The notes: generated by a model from the sequence alone, not told the origin. DNA of 64,000 nucleotides from Escherichia coli (GCF_046105845.1 NZ_CP151004.1); one strand, 5' to 3'; counted from the first letter of the stretch, positions 25,341-51,119 are shown. Translations and numbers: made by a program.

Positions 25341-26006
25341 TTAACTCGCCTGCAAAGCGTTGATTTCGGATTTATCTGCCAGTCTTTTCAACAGCATATT
25401 GAGTAATACGCCATACATTGGCAGGAAGAAAACGATACTGATTAACACTTTGAAACAGTAATCGACCAGCGCGATTTCCATCCAGTGTTCAGCCATAAAG
25501 GCATCCGGGCTACGCCAGAAGGCTATGAAGAAGAAGGCCAGCGTGTCGCTGACGTTACCAAACAGGGTGGAAGCCGTCGGTGCCAGCCACCAGCGACGAC
25601 TCTGACGCAGGCGGTTAAAAACGTGCACGTCGAGGATTTGCCCCAGCGCGTAGGCCATGAAACTGGCGGTGGCGATACGGGCGACAAACAGGTTGAAGTG
25701 GGCGAGCGCGCCGAATCCCTGCCAGGAACCCATATAGAACAGCGACGAGATGACGTAGGAGATCAGCAACGCCGGGATCATCACCGCAAAGATGATACGA
25801 CGGGCCAGCGGTGCGCCAAAAATACGCACGGTCAGGTCGGTAGCAAGGAAAATAAACGGAAAGCTAAATGCGCCCCAGGTGGTATGGAAACCAAAAATGG
25901 AGACGGGAAGCTGAACCAGATAGTTACTGGAGGTGATCACCAGAAGATGAAATAACGATAACCAGAACAACGCCTTATAGCGTTGAGTTTGCGAGAAAAC
26001 GTTCAT
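25341..26006 (-). CDS. yhhQ: Queuosine precursor (preQ0/preQ1) transporter YhhQ
   Basis: 221-aa multi-TM ORF starting MNVFSQTQRYKALFWLSLFHLLVITSSNYL (COG1738 family). Confidence 0.92.
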   Translation of the reverse strand: MNVFSQTQRYKALFWLSLFHLLVITSSNYLVQLPVSIFGFHTTWGAFSFPFIFLATDLTVRIFGAPLARRIIFAVMIPALLISYVISSLFYMGSWQGFGALAHFNLFVARIATASFMAYALGQILDVHVFNRLRQSRRWWLAPTASTLFGNVSDTLAFFFIAFWRSPDAFMAEHWMEIALVDYCFKVLISIVFFLPMYGVLLNMLLKRLADKSEINALQAS

Positions 26007-26048
26007 ATTGTACCTTTTTGATTAACCATTGGGGTGAGGGAACCCAAT
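26007..26048 (-). promoter_or_regulatory. Candidate preQ1-I-like riboswitch / translational control hairpin in the yhhQ 5' leader
   Basis: Leader RNA reads AUUGGG-UUCCCUCAC-CCCAAU followed by the A-rich tail UGGUUAAUCAAAAAGGUACAAU-AUG: a 5-6 bp stem, 9-nt loop and A-rich tail containing the SD, as in class I preQ1 aptamers. Confidence 0.35.
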
Positions 26049-26226
26049 ACGTACGACACGTCTGTTACCTTAACATAATAACGTGCTGACCCTTTTTTCG
26101 AGCCGCCGCATGATACTGCTTTACGTTGACAATGCAATGGTTAATTTTCACGCAATCGTTAACCTGGTTTGCTTACGGACTCACAGGGCGTAAACTAGCG
26201 CCGTTTTTTTATGTGATGAGAAGAAA

Positions 26227-26472
26227 ATGACCGATCTCTTTTCCTGCCCTGACCACACACTCGACGCACTTGGCCTGCGCTGCCCGGAACCAGTAATGAT
26301 GGTGCGCAAAACAGTGCGCAATATGCAGCCAGGTGAAACGTTGCTGATTATCGCCGACGATCCGGCCACTACCCGCGATATTCCTGGGTTTTGTACCTTT
26401 ATGGAACACGAACTGGTTGCTAAAGAGACGGATGGATTGCCTTATCGTTATTTGATTCGCAAAGGCGGTTGA
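26227..26472 (+). CDS. tusA: Sulfur carrier protein TusA
   Basis: 81-aa ORF with CPxP motif ([14 protein letters not shown]). Confidence 0.95.
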
Positions 26473-26503
26473 TGGGGAAAGATTGGCTTCGATGCCGCCT
26501 TTT

Positions 26504-26568
26504 CCCCTCACCCTAACCCTCTCCCCAGAGGAGCGAGAGGACCGATCGCGCTCAATGTTGCGATCGGT
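26504..26568. repeat. GC-rich intergenic repeat (CCCCTCACCCTAACCCTCTCCCC...) plus hairpin between tusA and zntA; same family as the ugpB-ugpA repeat
   Basis: Shares the 21-mer CCCTCACCCTAACCCTCTCCC and GACCGATCG with 44238-44280; adjacent ACCGATCGC-N10-GCGATCGGT hairpin likely terminates the convergent genes. Confidence 0.6.
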
Positions 26569-26573
26569 TTGCC

Positions 26574-28772
26574 TTATCTTCTGCGCAACAACCTTAACGC
26601 ATTCGCCGTTACCAGCACCGTCGCACCCGTATCTGCCAGCACCGCCAGCCATAGCCCGGTCATTCCTAACAGTGTGGTGACGAGGAAGATCCCTTTCAGC
26701 CCCAGCGCAATAGTGATGTTCTGGCGGATATTGGCGTGAGTGGCGCGTGCCAGTTCAATCATTTGCACCAGGCCGCGCAGGTGGTTATGGGTTAATGCTG
26801 CATCGGCGGTTTCCAGCGCCACGTCTGTGCCACTGCCCATTGCAATCCCGATGGCGGCGGCTTTCATCGCTGGCGCGTCGTTAATACCGTCACCGACCAT
26901 CGCCAGCGGCGCATGTTGATTCAGTTCGGTTACCGCTTTGACTTTATCTTCCGGCAATAGGCCCGCTTTAAACTCCAGCCCCAGTTCCCCGGCGATTGCC
27001 GCCGCTGCGCGTGGATTATCGCCGGTGAGGATCACTCCTTTAACCCCCAGCGCGTTCAGTTCACTTATGGCAGTTGCAGCATCGGCGCGTAGAGTATCCT
27101 GCAATGCAATGATACCCAGCACGTCATCGTTACGTACTACCAGCACTACCGTTTGCCCGGCGCTTTCCAGTTCATTAATCAAACCAGCAAATGCAACAGC
27201 CGGATGTTTCCCGGCAGCGCATATCAACACGCGCTCACCGTTAACCTGCGCTTCAATGCCAGACCCAACCAGCGCCCGCTGTGATTCGGCGGCGGGAATG
27301 GCGAGTTCAGCAACCTGTGCTTCGCGTACGATGGCTTGCGCCAGTGGATGCGTCGCGCCTTGCTCGACCGCCGCTGCCAGTGTCAGCAGTTCAGATTCAC
27401 TAATACCCGTTGCCGGATGAATCGCGGTAACGCGCGGTTTACCGACGGTCAGCGTACCGGTTTTATCAAACGCCACCTGGGTAACACGACCTAGTTGTTC
27501 CAGCGCCGCACCGCCTTTAATCAACGCCCCACGACGCGCTGCTGCTGCCAGCCCGGAGGTTATCGCCGCAGGCGTTGAGATAACTAACGCACACGGGCAA
27601 CCAATCAGCAGCAGCGTCAGCCCTTTATAAATCCACTCTTGCCAGCTGGCGGCAAACAGCAGCGGCGGCACCAGCGTTACCAGCAGGGCGACGGCCATAA
27701 TCGCGGGCGTGTAGATACGGCTGAAACGGTCGATAAACCGCTCAATGGGGGCGCGACGCTCTTCGGCTTCTTCGATCAGTTTCAGAATCCGGTCAATGGC
27801 GCTGGCACCCGGTTCTGACAGCACTTCCAGCGTTACCAGACGGTCTACGCTGGTGGCTCCTGCAGGAACTTTTTCGCCCGTCGCGCGCTCCACAGGAATG
27901 GATTCTCCGGTCAGGGCGCTTTCATCAAAACTGGCAAACGGTGAGAGCAGTTTACCGTCGGCAGGCAAACGTCCACCTGCGGCGACTTCAATCACATCGC
28001 CAGGGCGCAGGCTGTTAATCGCCACCTCTTCACGCTCACCGTTACGCAGGCGCGTGGCGGTTTCTGGTTTCAGCGCCATTAACGCGCTAACGCCCTGACG
28101 CGCGCGGCTGGCGGCCCAGCCTTCCAGTCGTTCACCAATCAAAAACAGCAGCAACACCATCGCAGCTTCAGCCGTTGCGCCAATAAACAGCGCACCAATA
28201 GCGGCTACGCTCATTAAGGTTTCAATGGCGAAGTAGCTGCCGGATTTGATCAGCCGTAATGCCTGACGAGCAATCGGGTACAGCCCAACCAGCGTGGTCG
28301 CGATAAACGCCAGTTGACCGAACGGATGATTAAACTGCTCCAGCCCCCAACTGATTGCCATCAACACGATTAGCGTAATCAGCGGCAAATTCTCTTTCAG
28401 GCGTGATGCTTGCGGTTCGTCGGCGGCCTGTTCATCGCGCAGGGAGTAGCCCGCTTTTTGCACCGCAGATTCAACCTGGGCACGGATGTCATTGTCGGCA
28501 TCCACCACCAGTTTTTCGGTGGCGAACAACACCTGCACCTGATTCACGCCTGCAAGCTGGCGCACGGCATTTTCCACTTTGCGCGCACAGGCGGCGCAGT
28601 CCATGCCGCTGACTTTCCAGCTATAGCGGGTGCCGGAGACGTTTTCAGAGAGCGTTGGCGTGCTGGAACATGCGCCGTCGCAGCAACAGTCGTTGGCGTT
28701 CTGTACCGTGGTTAGCGGTTTGAACGCAGCAAAGTGAGGGGCTTTCTTGCCGTGATTGTCAGGAGTCGACAT
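26574..28772 (-). CDS. zntA: Zn/Cd/Pb-translocating P-type ATPase ZntA
   Basis: 732-aa ORF with N-terminal GMDCAACARKVE metal-binding motif, CPC transduction motif and DKTGTLT phosphorylation site. Confidence 0.96.
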   Translation of the reverse strand: MSTPDNHGKKAPHFAAFKPLTTVQNANDCCCDGACSSTPTLSENVSGTRYSWKVSGMDCAACARKVENAVRQLAGVNQVQVLFATEKLVVDADNDIRAQVESAVQKAGYSLRDEQAADEPQASRLKENLPLITLIVLMAISWGLEQFNHPFGQLAFIATTLVGLYPIARQALRLIKSGSYFAIETLMSVAAIGALFIGATAEAAMVLLLFLIGERLEGWAASRARQGVSALMALKPETATRLRNGEREEVAINSLRPGDVIEVAAGGRLPADGKLLSPFASFDESALTGESIPVERATGEKVPAGATSVDRLVTLEVLSEPGASAIDRILKLIEEAEERRAPIERFIDRFSRIYTPAIMAVALLVTLVPPLLFAASWQEWIYKGLTLLLIGCPCALVISTPAAITSGLAAAARRGALIKGGAALEQLGRVTQVAFDKTGTLTVGKPRVTAIHPATGISESELLTLAAAVEQGATHPLAQAIVREAQVAELAIPAAESQRALVGSGIEAQVNGERVLICAAGKHPAVAFAGLINELESAGQTVVLVVRNDDVLGIIALQDTLRADAATAISELNALGVKGVILTGDNPRAAAAIAGELGLEFKAGLLPEDKVKAVTELNQHAPLAMVGDGINDAPAMKAAAIGIAMGSGTDVALETADAALTHNHLRGLVQMIELARATHANIRQNITIALGLKGIFLVTTLLGMTGLWLAVLADTGATVLVTANALRLLRRR

Positions 28773-30244: not shown

Positions 30245-30830
30245 CACTTTCTCCTTGTGCTTCGCGTTGATACAGCCGATAAGCCACCTGACCCGCCACT
30301 TTTTCCCGATGCAATGACCAGTTTGCCGGAACAGTGGGCAGACCGTTTTCGACTTCGCTTTCGACATAAATCAGGGCTTCGTCAGCCAGCCAGCCGTTAT
30401 CTTCCAGTAAATTTATCGTCTCTTCTAACAAGCCACGGCGGAACGGCGGATCGACAAACACGATATTATGCGGTGTGCCTTTTTGCGCCAGGAATGACAT
30501 CGCGTTGCTGTTCACCACGCGTGCATTGCCTGCTTTTAGTGTCGCCAGATTCTTAATTAACTGCTGAGAAACCGCGCGATCCATCTCAATCAACGTGGCC
30601 CCCGCAGCGTAGCGCGATAACGCTTCCAGCCCCAGCGCGCCGCTCCCGGCGAAGCAATCCAGACATTGGGCATCAACAATGACCGGAGCCAGCCAGTTAA
30701 ACAACGTTTCGCGTACGCGGTCGGTGGTGGGGCGCAGACCTGGGCTATCAGGAACCGGGAGTTTACGGCCTCGCCACTGCCCGCCAATAATGCGGATTTG
30801 GCCGCTGCCGGAATGATTCGGTTTTTTCAT
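30234..30830 (-). CDS. rsmD: 16S rRNA m2G966 methyltransferase RsmD
   Basis: 198-aa ORF with SAM-binding LDCFAGSGALGLEALSR motif and DPPF motif. Confidence 0.93.
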   Translation of the reverse strand: MKKPNHSGSGQIRIIGGQWRGRKLPVPDSPGLRPTTDRVRETLFNWLAPVIVDAQCLDCFAGSGALGLEALSRYAAGATLIEMDRAVSQQLIKNLATLKAGNARVVNSNAMSFLAQKGTPHNIVFVDPPFRRGLLEETINLLEDNGWLADEALIYVESEVENGLPTVPANWSLHREKVAGQVAYRLYQREAQGESDAD

Positions 30831-30979
30831 GATAAATTGCTCAATCCGCCAGATAACACATACTTGCAGGCGGTGATGTGAATTAAGTTAAGTGATAGAC
30901 TATTTCATCATTTTTTTAGCTGCTATGTACATAGCGTTAACGCTGTGCCATGAAGCAACAGCGAGGAGTGTAGTCGCAA

Positions 30980-32476
30980 ATGGCGAAAGAAAAAAAACGT
31001 GGCTTTTTTTCCTGGCTGGGCTTTGGTCAAAAAGAGCAGACCCCGGAAAAAGAGACAGAAGTTCAGAATGAACAACCGGTTGTAGAAGAAATCGTTCAGG
31101 CGCAAGAGCCTGCGAAGGCTTCGGAACAAGCCGTTGAAGAGCAGCCGCAGGCGCATACTGAGGCCGAAGCGGAAACTTTTGCTGCCGAAGTTGTGGAAGT
31201 CACTGAACAGGTTGCTGAAAGTGAAAAAGCGCAGCCTGAAGCGGAAGTCGTTGCACAGCCGGAACTGGTCGCAGAAGAAACGCCGGAGCCAGTGGCTATC
31301 GAACGTGAAGAGCTGCCGTTGCCGGAAGACGTCAACGCCGAAGAGGTTTCGCCAGAAGAGTGGCGGGCTGAAGCGGAAACCGTAGAGATTGTCGAAGCGG
31401 CGGAAGAAGAAGCGGCTAAAGAAGAAATCACCGACGAAGAGCTGGAAGCACAGGCGCTGGCTGCCGAAGCGGCAGAAGAGGCGGTGATGGTGGTTCCTCC
31501 GGCAGAAGAAGAGCAGCCGGTGGATGAAATCGCTCAGGAGCAGGAAAAACCGACCAAAGAAGGTTTCTTCGCGCGCCTGAAACGCAGCCTGTTAAAAACC
31601 AAAGAAAATCTCGGTTCCGGATTTATCAGCCTGTTCCGCGGTAAAAAAATCGACGATGATCTGTTTGAGGAGCTGGAAGAGCAGCTTTTGATCGCCGATG
31701 TGGGTGTGGAAACCACACGTAAAATTATCACCAATCTGACGGAAGGCGCATCCCGCAAGCAGCTTCGTGATGCCGAGGCGCTCTATGGCCTGCTGAAAGA
31801 AGAGATGGGCGAGATTCTGGCGAAAGTCGATGAGCCGCTGAATGTTGAAGGTAAAACGCCGTTCGTGATCCTGATGGTGGGCGTCAACGGTGTGGGTAAA
31901 ACCACGACGATTGGTAAGCTGGCACGTCAGTTTGAGCAGCAGGGTAAATCGGTGATGCTGGCGGCGGGCGATACTTTCCGTGCAGCAGCGGTTGAGCAGC
32001 TTCAGGTCTGGGGTCAGCGCAACAATATTCCGGTGATTGCCCAGCATACCGGGGCGGATTCCGCCTCTGTTATCTTCGACGCCATTCAGGCCGCTAAAGC
32101 GCGTAATATCGACGTCCTGATTGCCGATACCGCCGGACGCCTGCAGAACAAATCGCACCTGATGGAAGAGTTGAAGAAAATCGTCCGCGTGATGAAGAAA
32201 CTCGACGTTGAAGCGCCGCATGAAGTTATGCTGACTATCGATGCCAGCACCGGGCAGAACGCGGTAAGCCAGGCCAAACTGTTCCATGAAGCCGTTGGCT
32301 TAACCGGCATCACGCTAACGAAACTGGACGGCACGGCGAAAGGCGGGGTAATTTTCTCGGTGGCTGACCAGTTTGGTATTCCTATCCGCTACATTGGTGT
32401 CGGCGAACGTATTGAGGATTTGCGTCCGTTTAAGGCGGACGACTTTATAGAGGCACTTTTTGCCCGAGAGGATTAA
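30980..32476 (+). CDS. ftsY: Signal recognition particle receptor FtsY
   Basis: 498-aa ORF; acidic Glu/Ala-rich N-terminal A domain followed by NG GTPase domain (GVNGVGKTT, DTAGR). Confidence 0.96.
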   Translation: MAKEKKRGFFSWLGFGQKEQTPEKETEVQNEQPVVEEIVQAQEPAKASEQAVEEQPQAHTEAEAETFAAEVVEVTEQVAESEKAQPEAEVVAQPELVAEETPEPVAIEREELPLPEDVNAEEVSPEEWRAEAETVEIVEAAEEEAAKEEITDEELEAQALAAEAAEEAVMVVPPAEEEQPVDEIAQEQEKPTKEGFFARLKRSLLKTKENLGSGFISLFRGKKIDDDLFEELEEQLLIADVGVETTRKIITNLTEGASRKQLRDAEALYGLLKEEMGEILAKVDEPLNVEGKTPFVILMVGVNGVGKTTTIGKLARQFEQQGKSVMLAAGDTFRAAAVEQLQVWGQRNNIPVIAQHTGADSASVIFDAIQAAKARNIDVLIADTAGRLQNKSHLMEELKKIVRVMKKLDVEAPHEVMLTIDASTGQNAVSQAKLFHEAVGLTGITLTKLDGTAKGGVIFSVADQFGIPIRYIGVGERIEDLRPFKADDFIEALFARED

Positions 32477-32478
32477 CA

Positions 32479-33147
32479 ATGATTCGCTTTGAACATGTCA
32501 GCAAGGCTTATCTCGGTGGGAGACAGGCGCTGCAGGGCGTTACGTTCCATATGCAGCCGGGTGAGATGGCGTTTCTGACCGGTCATTCCGGCGCAGGGAA
32601 AAGTACCCTCCTGAAGCTGATCTGTGGGATTGAGCGGCCCAGCGCCGGGAAAATCTGGTTTAGCGGCCATGACATCACGCGTCTGAAAAACCGTGAAGTT
32701 CCGTTTCTGCGCCGCCAGATTGGCATGATTTTCCAGGATCACCATCTCCTGATGGACCGTACTGTCTACGATAATGTGGCGATCCCGCTGATTATCGCCG
32801 GTGCCAGCGGTGACGATATTCGCCGCCGTGTATCCGCGGCACTGGATAAAGTCGGGCTACTGGACAAAGCGAAGAACTTCCCTATTCAGCTTTCGGGCGG
32901 TGAACAACAACGTGTTGGCATTGCCCGCGCGGTGGTGAACAAGCCCGCGGTACTGCTGGCGGACGAACCGACTGGTAACCTGGACGACGCGTTGTCGGAA
33001 GGCATTTTACGTCTGTTTGAAGAGTTTAACCGCGTTGGGGTAACCGTATTGATGGCAACGCACGACATCAACCTGATCTCGCGGCGTTCCTATCGCATGC
33101 TCACCCTGAGCGATGGTCACTTGCATGGAGGCGTGGGCCATGAATAA
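32479..33147 (+). CDS. ftsE: Cell division ABC ATPase FtsE
   Basis: 222-aa ABC ATPase ([17 protein letters not shown]). Confidence 0.96.
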
Positions 33148-47206: not shown

Positions 47207-47946
47207 GTAACTGGCCTTATCCCCGCATCGTCGCCCATCGTGGCGGCGGTAAACTGGCCCCGGAAAACACCCTGGCGGCAATCGACGTGGGGGCAAAATA
47301 CGGTCATAAGATGATCGAATTTGACGCGAAGTTATCGAAAGATGGCGAGATCTTCCTGCTCCATGACGACAATCTCGAACGTACCAGCAACGGCTGGGGC
47401 GTCGCGGGTGAACTGAACTGGCAGGATTTACTGCGCGTGGATGCGGGCAGTTGGTACAGCAAAGCGTTTAAAGGTGAGCTGCTGCCGTTGCTTTCGCAGG
47501 TGGCGGAACGCTGTCGCGAACACGGGATGATGGCGAATATCGAAATCAAACCCACCACTGGCACCGGGCCATTAACGGGCAAAACGGTGGCGCTGGCGGC
47601 ACGCGAACTGTGGGCCGATATGACGCCGCCGCTGCTGTCATCGTTTGAGATTGATGCTTTAGAAGCTGCACAACAGGCTGCACCGGAACTGCCGCGCGGT
47701 TTGTTGTTGGATGAGTGGCGCGACGACTGGCGAGAATTGACCGCGCGGCTGGGCTGCGTCTCTATTCATCTCAATCATAAGTTGCTCGATAAAGCGCGAG
47801 TGATACAGTTGAAAGACGCCGGATTACGGATTCTGGTTTATACCGTCAATAAACCCCAGCGCGCGGCAGAGTTGCTGCGCTGGGGCGTGGATTGCATCTG
47901 CACCGATGCGATTGACGTGATTGGTCCGAACTTTACGGCCCAATAG
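47203..47946 (+). CDS. ugpQ: Glycerophosphodiester phosphodiesterase UgpQ
   Basis: 247-aa [26 protein letters not shown] (GDPD motif HRG); 4-bp overlap with ugpC. Confidence 0.95.
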
Positions 47947-48373
47947 TTTTCAACGGAATATCAGGCTGCGGCGTGCTGGGCTGATTCAGCATGTCGCCGT
48001 TTCTCCTCTCCGGCAACATATGCTGCTGATTCAACGAACTATCCGGATTACGGTTGCTGTTTAACATCCCGCCGTTGGTGTTGGGCAGCATTTGCTGCCG
48101 GGCGGGATTTCGCTCCCCCGGCTGTGACTGCAACACCCGCTGAGAATTATTGTTTATCTGGTTTTCTAAATGCTGTTGTTGCAACTGAGTTTGCGTTTTC
48201 AGTTGCTGATTCAGCATCCCTTTTTGCTGGATTTGCTGCGTTTGCATTTGAGTTTGCATCCGCTGCTGGCTGGGGATCTGATATCCCGGTTGGTTGGGGT
48301 TGTTCAGAGTATTAATGGGCTGTGCAAAGCCGACAAACGGCAGGAGTGCCGTAAGAATCAGAAGTCGTTTCAT
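47933..48373 (-). CDS. yhhA: Secreted Gln/Asn-rich low-complexity protein YhhA
   Basis: 146-aa ORF with signal peptide ([17 protein letters not shown]) followed by Q/N-rich repeats; its 3' end overlaps the ugpQ 3' end by 14 bp. Confidence 0.85.
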
Positions 48374-50908: not shown

Positions 50909-50998
50909 GCGATCAGGAAGACCCTCGCGGAGAACCTGAAAGCACGACATTGCTCACATTGCTTCCAGTATTACTTAGCCAGCCGGGTGCTGGCTTTT
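50909..50998 (+). ncRNA. ryhB: Fur-regulated iron-sparing small RNA RyhB
   Basis: GCGATCAGGAAGACCCTCGCGGAGAACCTGAAAGCACGACATTGCTCACATTGCTTCCAGTATTACTTAGCCAGCCGGGTGCTGGCTTTT matches RyhB; ends in a GC hairpin plus U-tract; Fur-box-like AT-rich sequence immediately upstream. Confidence 0.92.
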
Positions 50999-51119
50999 TT
51001 TTGATCTTTCGTTTTCAATTTATCCACGGGAAGTGCTTGTGTTCGTTATGCGCACTCCAGTAGGAACCACGTCCGCTTTGCGCTAAGGTGTAAATAATCA
51101 CCTTAAAAAGGACGAAATC

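Follow-up and report, generated by a model that had tools for sequence, protein, structure and literature searches.

What kind of sequence occupies positions 31020-31560 of the 64,000-nucleotide stretch of Escherichia coli DNA analysed here (GCF_046105845.1, NZ_CP151004.1; hereafter the window)? A preliminary description assigned this interval to the 5' end of ftsY, as about 180 codons dominated by Glu, Ala, Gln and Pro, and noted that such DNA could be mistaken for a repeat element. Several readings have to be weighed, namely that the DNA is a genuine repeat, that one of the ORFs in its alternative frames is a gene, or that the protein segment it encodes is passive filler. We consider it very probable that what is encoded here is the acidic middle of the A domain at the N-terminus of FtsY, and that the mechanism established by K-12 experiments extends to the allele carried by the window. 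FtsY is the SRP receptor and helps ribosomes engaged in making membrane proteins to dock at the membrane.

The identity of the gene is clear. The window is a segment of the E. coli chromosome, and the gene at 30980..32476 on the plus strand is ftsY, encoding 498 aa plus a stop codon, as agreed by the ORF itself, TIGR00064, Pfam, RefSeq position and PDB matches. The product scores 386.2 bits against TIGR00064 (the NCBIfam equivalog 'ftsY', cut-off 260.7), whereas in the same NCBIfam comparison of whole FtsY the Ffh model (233.8 bits, cut-off 473.2) and the SRP54 model (163.5 bits, cut-off 576.25) both remain below threshold. The NG architecture consists of an SRP54_N helical bundle (PF02881, aa 211-276, 4.1e-15) followed by an SRP54-type GTPase (PF00448, aa 294-494, 4.6e-80), together occupying 31610..32461 on the plus strand and covered by structures 2QY9, 1FTS and 6CQP, which span aa 197-498. 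The protein aligns end to end with chains 2YHS and 5GAD of E. coli FtsY, and crystallised constructs begin at aa 195-225. Among complete E. coli genomes, the first 594 nt from 30980 are matched in 5,425 of 5,426, with the RefSeq label ftsY throughout, and are 100% identical to Ecol_316 and 97.1% identical to K-12 MG1655. The RefSeq gene order runs zntA, yhhN, yhhM, yhhL, rsmD, then the divergent ftsY-ftsE-ftsX, rpoH and livJ, with equivalent ORFs in the window; in four RefSeq genomes ftsY-ftsE-ftsX likewise points away from rsmD and has rpoH after it, the enterobacterial arrangement. Because the NG domain is 99.7% identical to that of K-12 FtsY (one substitution in 301 aa), the FtsY of the window would be expected to form a GTP-dependent heterodimer with Ffh and to take part in freeing the ribosome-nascent chain at SecYEG.

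Positions 31020-31560 correspond to ftsY codons 14-194 (181 codons), which form the A domain's acidic core and are composed of 30% Glu, 17% Ala, 12% Val, 9% Gln and 8% Pro. Together Glu, Ala, Gln and Pro make up 64.6% of these residues, compared with 24.9% of the remainder of FtsY; acidic residues number 58 and basic residues 9, giving a net charge of -49, and Shannon entropy, at 3.22 bits, lies below the 3.96 of the remaining, NG part of the protein. The enrichment of the four residues named in the preliminary description is therefore confirmed, but its list omits Val, which exceeds both Gln and Pro. The stretch is an extreme compositional outlier within the 64-kb window: the 35 ORFs that reach 250 aa or more supply 884 segments of 181 aa for comparison, and the most extreme values these show outside ftsY are a net charge of -21, a Glu content of 11% and an entropy of 3.56. 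An acidic, Glu-rich N-terminal extension is what aa 1-197 present (59 Asp and Glu, 13 Lys and Arg; Glu 28-30%), and the pI of aa 1-207, at 4.08, is the same as the published value (PMC5094494). Searched alone, the A domain matches no Pfam or NCBIfam family; the one NCBIfam match, to redoxin_TUGYCR, is noise, at 16 bits where the cut-off is 100. The stretch fits the A domain, since it lies upstream of all Pfam and NCBIfam domains of FtsY and has no family match of its own.

The DNA itself was described as repetitive, and its redundancy is indeed striking. Repeated 9-mer pairs number 22 in the 543-nt acidic tile, whereas mononucleotide shuffles give 1.3 +/- 1.5 and none of 500 comes as high; the tile ranks first in k-mer redundancy among the 635 tiles of the 64 kb. 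A genuine repeat element in or next to ftsY, be it a tandem repeat (VNTR), a mobile or an intergenic repeat, might be suspected on these grounds, and also because the only TRF match in the whole 64-kb window falls within the stretch and E. coli strains differ in its length. However, shuffling the order of the codons yields 17.3 +/- 8.2 such pairs, with 127 of 500 shuffles reaching or exceeding the observed 22 (for k = 8-10, p is about 0.25); observed and shuffled sequences share a longest exact repeat of 12 nt. Consequently, the repetitiveness comes from codon composition (GAA 41, GAG 14, GCG 13, CAG 12 and CCG 10 of the 181 codons; 65% purine) and not from a repeat unit. The TRF match is weak, comprising only 2.2 copies of the 15-nt unit GAAGCGGCGAAAGAA (31394..31426, plus strand; score 52, 88% matches) and encoding EAAEEEAAKEE, and a repeat scan of the region returned just imperfect pairs of 12-26 nt at irregular spacing.

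Further observations speak against a repeat element at the levels of protein, RNA family and genome. Self-comparison of the acidic stretch gave no internal protein repeat, its best off-diagonal match being equalled in 128 of 300 residue shuffles and so not exceeding what composition provides, and a scan of the whole window at Rfam gathering thresholds found nothing in or near ftsY. Neither a head-to-tail unit beyond the short 15-nt array nor dispersed copies were found: the locus is single-copy and chromosomal in essentially all complete E. coli genomes, with a median of one place per genome and none on plasmids. We therefore regard a repeat element at this locus as extremely improbable, and codon composition as the source of the redundancy. 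What stands of the description as repetitive DNA is the k-mer redundancy, which tops the window; no repeat architecture emerges from the comparison with codon shuffles, from TRF or from the protein self-match. The repeated EAEAE/EEAAEE units that had been claimed do not withstand counting, as EAEAE occurs once (aa 61), EEAAEE not at all, and the fragments that do recur are short (AEAE twice, AAEE twice, AEE five times). As a separate observation, the spacing of Glu residues shows a weak periodicity of about 5.66 residues (p = 0.001), which a picture of pure composition does not predict; no finding contradicts the preferred explanation.

Length differences among strains, which could be taken as a sign of a tandem array, leave the reading frame intact in all alleles examined. 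Across 20 evenly spaced records among the E. coli matches, the matched interval measured 594 nt in eleven, 591 nt in seven, 585 nt in one and 474 nt in one, and all length variants are in frame and annotated as intact ftsY. Relative to the window, K-12 lacks one codon, Q158, and strain 98203 lacks three codons inside GCC[GAAGCGGCA]GAAGAG. In strain PSJ-07 a run of 40 codons (aa 126-165) is missing, a loss of 120 nt that, on alignment with the window, falls exactly between two copies of the 8-nt direct repeat CAGAAGAG, the left at 31353..31360 and the right exactly 120 nt (40 codons) downstream at 31473..31480, both on the plus strand. The identical 40-codon junction, EEVSPEEAVMVVPP, occurs in the metagenomic protein P0021. 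The 474-nt deletion allele ranked last among the 5,425 matching records. A potential explanation for these alleles is that a coding sequence heavy in GAA, GAG, GCN, CAG and CCG codons, which makes the DNA purine-rich and k-mer-redundant, would also scatter short direct repeats through it, and that these may promote in-frame slippage and microhomology deletions.

The same codon usage leaves the other frames nearly free of stops and thereby gives rise to shadow ORFs. Three such ORFs were called: one of 111 aa on the minus strand (31096..31431; Ser 34%, Ala 20%), one of 77 aa on the minus strand (30923..31156; rich in Leu, Phe and Arg) and one of 83 aa in the +1 frame of the plus strand (31134..31385; rich in Lys, Arg, Leu and Ser). 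In random sequence such lengths would be unusual, and the frames of the antisense strand hold hardly any stops across about 600 nt (0 stops in 198 codons in the codon-aligned antisense frame), so that one of them, above all the 111-aa ORF, might be proposed as a real overlapping gene. Yet this depletion is forced by the sense codons, since A-domain DNA has 23 stops over its five non-coding frames where codon-order shuffles have 25.1, compared with 42 per equivalent length in the NG domain; GAA/GCN-rich sense codons leave few stops in the other frames. The products are mirror-image low-complexity sequences without a Pfam match at E <= 1; four RefSeq genomes annotate none of the three ORFs, and place no gene on the strand of the 111-aa ORF. 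A second layer of constraint would be expected to lower synonymous divergence in the sense frame, but dS within E. coli is similar in the A domain (0.04-0.10) and in NG (0.05-0.11), with no such layer visible. Promoter and terminator counts across 30700-32600 do not exceed those of shuffles, and no promoter-like site on the minus strand accompanies the antisense ORF. We thus give an overlapping gene scarcely any probability and do not consider any of the three ORFs a gene; the earlier attribution of the antisense ORFs to composition is borne out. Nor is the RNA at the ftsY 5' end (30960-31030, A8/T7 runs included) remarkable in its fold, which has a z-score of -0.64.

With the DNA accounted for by the acidic coding sequence of ftsY, the anatomy of the A domain can be laid out. 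It begins with a basic lipid-binding stretch, MAKEKKRGFFSWLG (aa 1-14, 30980..31021, plus strand; pI 10.29; lipid contact by NMR, PMC5094494), and closes at the A/N junction with a basic amphipathic membrane-targeting sequence, EKPTKEGFFARLKRSLLKTK (aa 189-208, 31544..31603, plus strand; pI 10.45; PMC2928010, PMC5094494). The latter reaches a hydrophobic moment of 0.70 (aa 196-206; net charge +4), the highest in the first 220 aa, and includes the critical Phe197, equivalent to K-12 Phe196; throughout, residue numbers of the window beyond 157 equal the K-12 number of the literature plus one. Both basic ends are identical to those of K-12 and are invariant, or in the N-terminal case nearly so, in ten enterobacterial orthologues. 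Between them lies the acidic low-complexity core (aa 15-188, about 174 residues; 31022..31543, plus strand), which is predicted to be disordered from its composition, its lack of a family, its omission from crystallised constructs, NMR of the K-12 protein and the Uversky charge-hydropathy plot, where an H of 0.417 against a boundary of 0.514 puts it on the disordered side and NG falls on the folded side. The best-conserved island within the core, TDEELEAQALAAEAAEEA (aa 151-168, 31430..31483, plus strand), stands out by its conservation among orthologues and by its correspondence to segments singled out in published work (PMC5094494, PMC4602035).

The A domain of K-12 (residues 1-196/207) is the natural point of comparison. 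It belongs to the same gene and locus, with identical N-terminal 44 residues and junction sequence, a matching acidic composition and an overall protein identity of 98%. The differences, read from the window to K-12, are A45V, E70D, L96P, A98V, E122A, R129Q, A157T and D182E in the A domain and the single substitution T293A in NG, in addition to the extra codon that brings the protein of the window to 498 aa against 497. As the preliminary description held, this is known biology, with both NMR and cross-linking of the A domain published (PMC5094494, PMC4602035, PMC2064314, PMC2928010). NMR of the K-12 A domain gives random-coil shifts and reveals disorder and strong dynamics (Ile38-Ala140), together with a transient helix at Asp152-Ala161; Gly8-Lys18 become immobilised on lipid nanodiscs (PMC5094494). 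For its part, the acidic centre binds SecYEG and not lipid, and keeps its disorder in the bound state (PMC5094494). The Kd for SecYEG is 0.18 uM for the A domain, the same as for full-length FtsY, and binding weakens as salt rises, leading the authors to propose an electrostatic tether that leaves NG free to search for ribosome-bound SRP (PMC5094494). A cross-link from SecY to FtsY residues 143-176 is reported in PMC4602035, which cites Kuhn 2011. The conserved island matches the transient helix and lies within this cross-linked peptide. On the strength of 98% identity, the A domain of the window would likewise be disordered and bind SecY.

The contribution of the A domain has also been examined through its removal. 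The truncated FtsY(NG+1) complements, which makes the A domain dispensable in the laboratory (PMC2928010, PMC4602035), and its targeting efficiency is only 26% lower (PMC2928010). Its association with SecY is no longer carbonate-resistant, and its activity in secY40 vesicles is lowered, their rescue requiring higher NG+1 concentrations (PMC2064314). In the same study, FtsY of 54 kDa migrates at 90 kDa on SDS-PAGE (PMC2064314). The A domain is non-essential and absent in many bacterial homologues (PMC4602035). In nature, the PSJ-07 deletion takes out the transient helix along with the greater part of the peptide cross-linked to SecY, which is consistent with a dispensable A domain. Because NG+1 complements and a natural isolate does without aa 126-165, most of the SecY-contact peptide, the tether function appears to be quantitatively modest.

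Could the acidic core then be a passive spacer, a solubility tag, an 'entropic bristle' or neutral filler with no specific partner? The mild phenotype of NG+1, the occurrence of the 40-codon deletion in a natural isolate and the absence of the domain from many bacterial FtsY proteins all lend this alternative some weight, as does its pattern of evolution. Comparison of E. coli alleles gives dN/dS values of 0.07-0.34 for the A domain, about ten times those of NG (0-0.047). Over larger distances, an A-domain-only protein search matched solely Enterobacteriaceae, mostly as partial, chimeric or frameshifted gene calls, leaving nine orthologue N-termini usable; in a comparison of ten enterobacterial N-termini, including Salmonella, Citrobacter, Enterobacter and Huaxiibacter, close genera differ in A-domain length (152 to 204 aa), with many indels, and identity to the window falls to 44-66%.

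However, other features count against a spacer without a partner. Net charge and composition are held in a narrow band despite sequence turnover (net charge -36 to -52, Glu 24-31%, Glu+Ala+Gln+Pro+Val 67-73% across the ten orthologues), the dN/dS of the A domain remains well under 1, and short islands are retained, namely FAxxVVxVTE and the island at aa 151-168. The two basic ends persist, with 13 of 20 residues invariant at the N-terminus and 37 of 37 over aa 187-223 at the junction. Conserved composition and charge, together with drifting sequence and length and invariant ends, fit the prediction of non-specific electrostatic binding. Moreover, the isolated A domain binds SecYEG nanodiscs in a salt-sensitive manner and as tightly as the full-length protein, and NG+1 lacks the stable SecY association described above and is needed in larger amounts for secY40 vesicles. 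We therefore judge a passive core unlikely, and favour an acidic core that engages SecY.

Comparison with other SRP receptors places the acidic extension in a wider context. The N-terminus of eukaryotic SR-alpha (SRX plus linker) is also an extension of a homologous NG GTPase that holds the SRP receptor at the translocon membrane (PMC2928010), but there a folded X domain dimerises with the integral membrane protein SR-beta, whereas FtsY lacks a subunit of this kind and uses lipid-binding helices and a disordered acidic tether (PMC2928010, PMC5094494); no similarity of the A domain to SR-alpha was detected, as judged from the lack of a Pfam or NCBIfam match. FtsY proteins with a short A domain or none, from Thermus aquaticus, Thermotoga maritima, Mycoplasma and the chloroplast (cpFtsY), share the homologous NG (E 1e-62 to 1e-95; 1VMA, 1RJ9, 1ZU4, 3B9Q) and, at the N domain's N-terminus, a helix that binds lipid, but their chains are about 300-320 aa, align from query residue ~195 onwards and lack the acidic extension. 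Archaeal FtsY (Pyrococcus furiosus; Sulfolobus) carries highly charged N-terminal extensions that are implicated in membrane association (PMC2572998; bioRxiv 10.1101/2022.04.13.488184). These differ in having no detectable sequence relationship to the A domain, which as a query retrieved Enterobacteriaceae alone.

Taken over from K-12 experiments, the working of the domain in the window would be as follows. The basic N-terminus (14 residues) and the amphipathic helix at the A/N junction would bind anionic phospholipids, and the acidic middle would stay disordered and bind SecY at its positively charged cytosolic loops C4/C5 in a non-specific, electrostatic manner (PMC5094494, PMC4602035); the A domain would raise targeting efficiency without being essential. 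A more adventurous hypothesis is that the short direct repeats resulting from codon bias constitute built-in, in-frame length variation that is selected and not neutral, tuning tether length or charge, and hence the efficiency of SRP targeting, across E. coli lineages; the spacing of Glu at about 5.66 residues could share that sequence grammar. We consider this very unlikely, and offer it as a speculation.

The feature is already known, being the A domain of E. coli FtsY in an allelic variant of an experimentally studied protein. Our analyses add a quantification of its relaxed constraint (dN/dS about ten times that of NG at equal dS) and of the conservation of charge and composition despite turnover and indels, and the natural in-frame length alleles, including the 40-codon microhomology deletion, are a small addition to the known picture. 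For annotation, the value of these results lies in avoiding that the locus be flagged as a repeat element or that genes be called in its stop-free frames. As a disordered, charge-driven tether, the A domain is a textbook case among bacteria, and the present results leave that picture unchanged.

In the acidic, probably disordered A domain of FtsY, the glutamates show a weak periodicity: across aa 14-194 (31019-31561 of the window), the spectrum of Glu positions peaks at a period of ~5.66 residues (p = 0.001 in a max-of-spectrum test against 1000 shuffles), and their autocorrelation has bumps at lags of ~5-6, 11, 17, 22-23 and 27. A close relative, P0016, which is a database protein retrieved with the A domain as query, has the same ~5.66-residue peak (p = 0.0005), and Huaxiibacter has it weakly (p = 0.02); neither the Salmonella, Citrobacter and Enterobacter orthologues nor the NG domain (SRP54_N plus GTPase) shows a significant peak. 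This Glu periodicity is probably lineage-specific.

The A domain also exists in a naturally shortened form. E. coli PSJ-07 (NZ_AP027619.1, 1001-2377 of the retrieved region) encodes an intact FtsY of 458 aa that lacks aa 126-165, a deletion of 40 codons corresponding to 31355-31474 of the window, and the metagenomic protein P0021 has the same deletion junction. The missing segment contains the transient helix described in the A domain of K-12 FtsY (PMC5094494), together with most of the K-12 A-domain peptide that cross-links to SecY (PMC4602035). PSJ-07 is a natural isolate from human faeces.

Among the database 'proteins' that the A-domain query retrieved, many are gene calls with a frameshift, and their breaks fall exactly at homopolymer runs within ftsY (A8 at 30990-30997, T7 at 31004-31010 and A7 at 31643-31649). 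Frameshifted calls P0009-P0013, P0022 and P0031 start MYIALTLCHEATARSVVANGERKK... from an upstream ATG at 30926, and others terminate ...RGKKSTMICL.... These frameshifts seem to reflect faulty sequencing or assembly in the public data rather than biology. Several ENA entries (P0014-P0020) are chimeras, joined to unrelated sequence.

From 30741 to 31609, a stretch that takes in the 5' end of rsmD, the region between rsmD and ftsY and the entire A domain, the window and E. coli Ecol_316 are identical, whereas on both sides of it they have diverged by ~1.4% (123 differences over 8.6 kb). The NG domain accommodates 11 differences between them, and the best match to the NG part in the genome collection does not exceed 99.6%. 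This pattern resembles a recombination mosaic whose breakpoint would lie close to the boundary between the A and NG domains.

Elsewhere in Ecol_316, an IS3-family IS1397 transposase (25873-27221 of the retrieved region) lies between panM and livJ. An Rfam scan of the whole 64 kb returned the small RNA RyhB (50938-51002, + strand, 83.1 bits) as the sole family at gathering score. The window tile ranking second for k-mer redundancy is that of yhhA (DUF2756; 47933-48373, - strand), whose 146-aa product is rich in Gln and Asn and has a signal-peptide-like N-terminus. It is a further low-complexity coding region that is open to being mistaken for a repeat.
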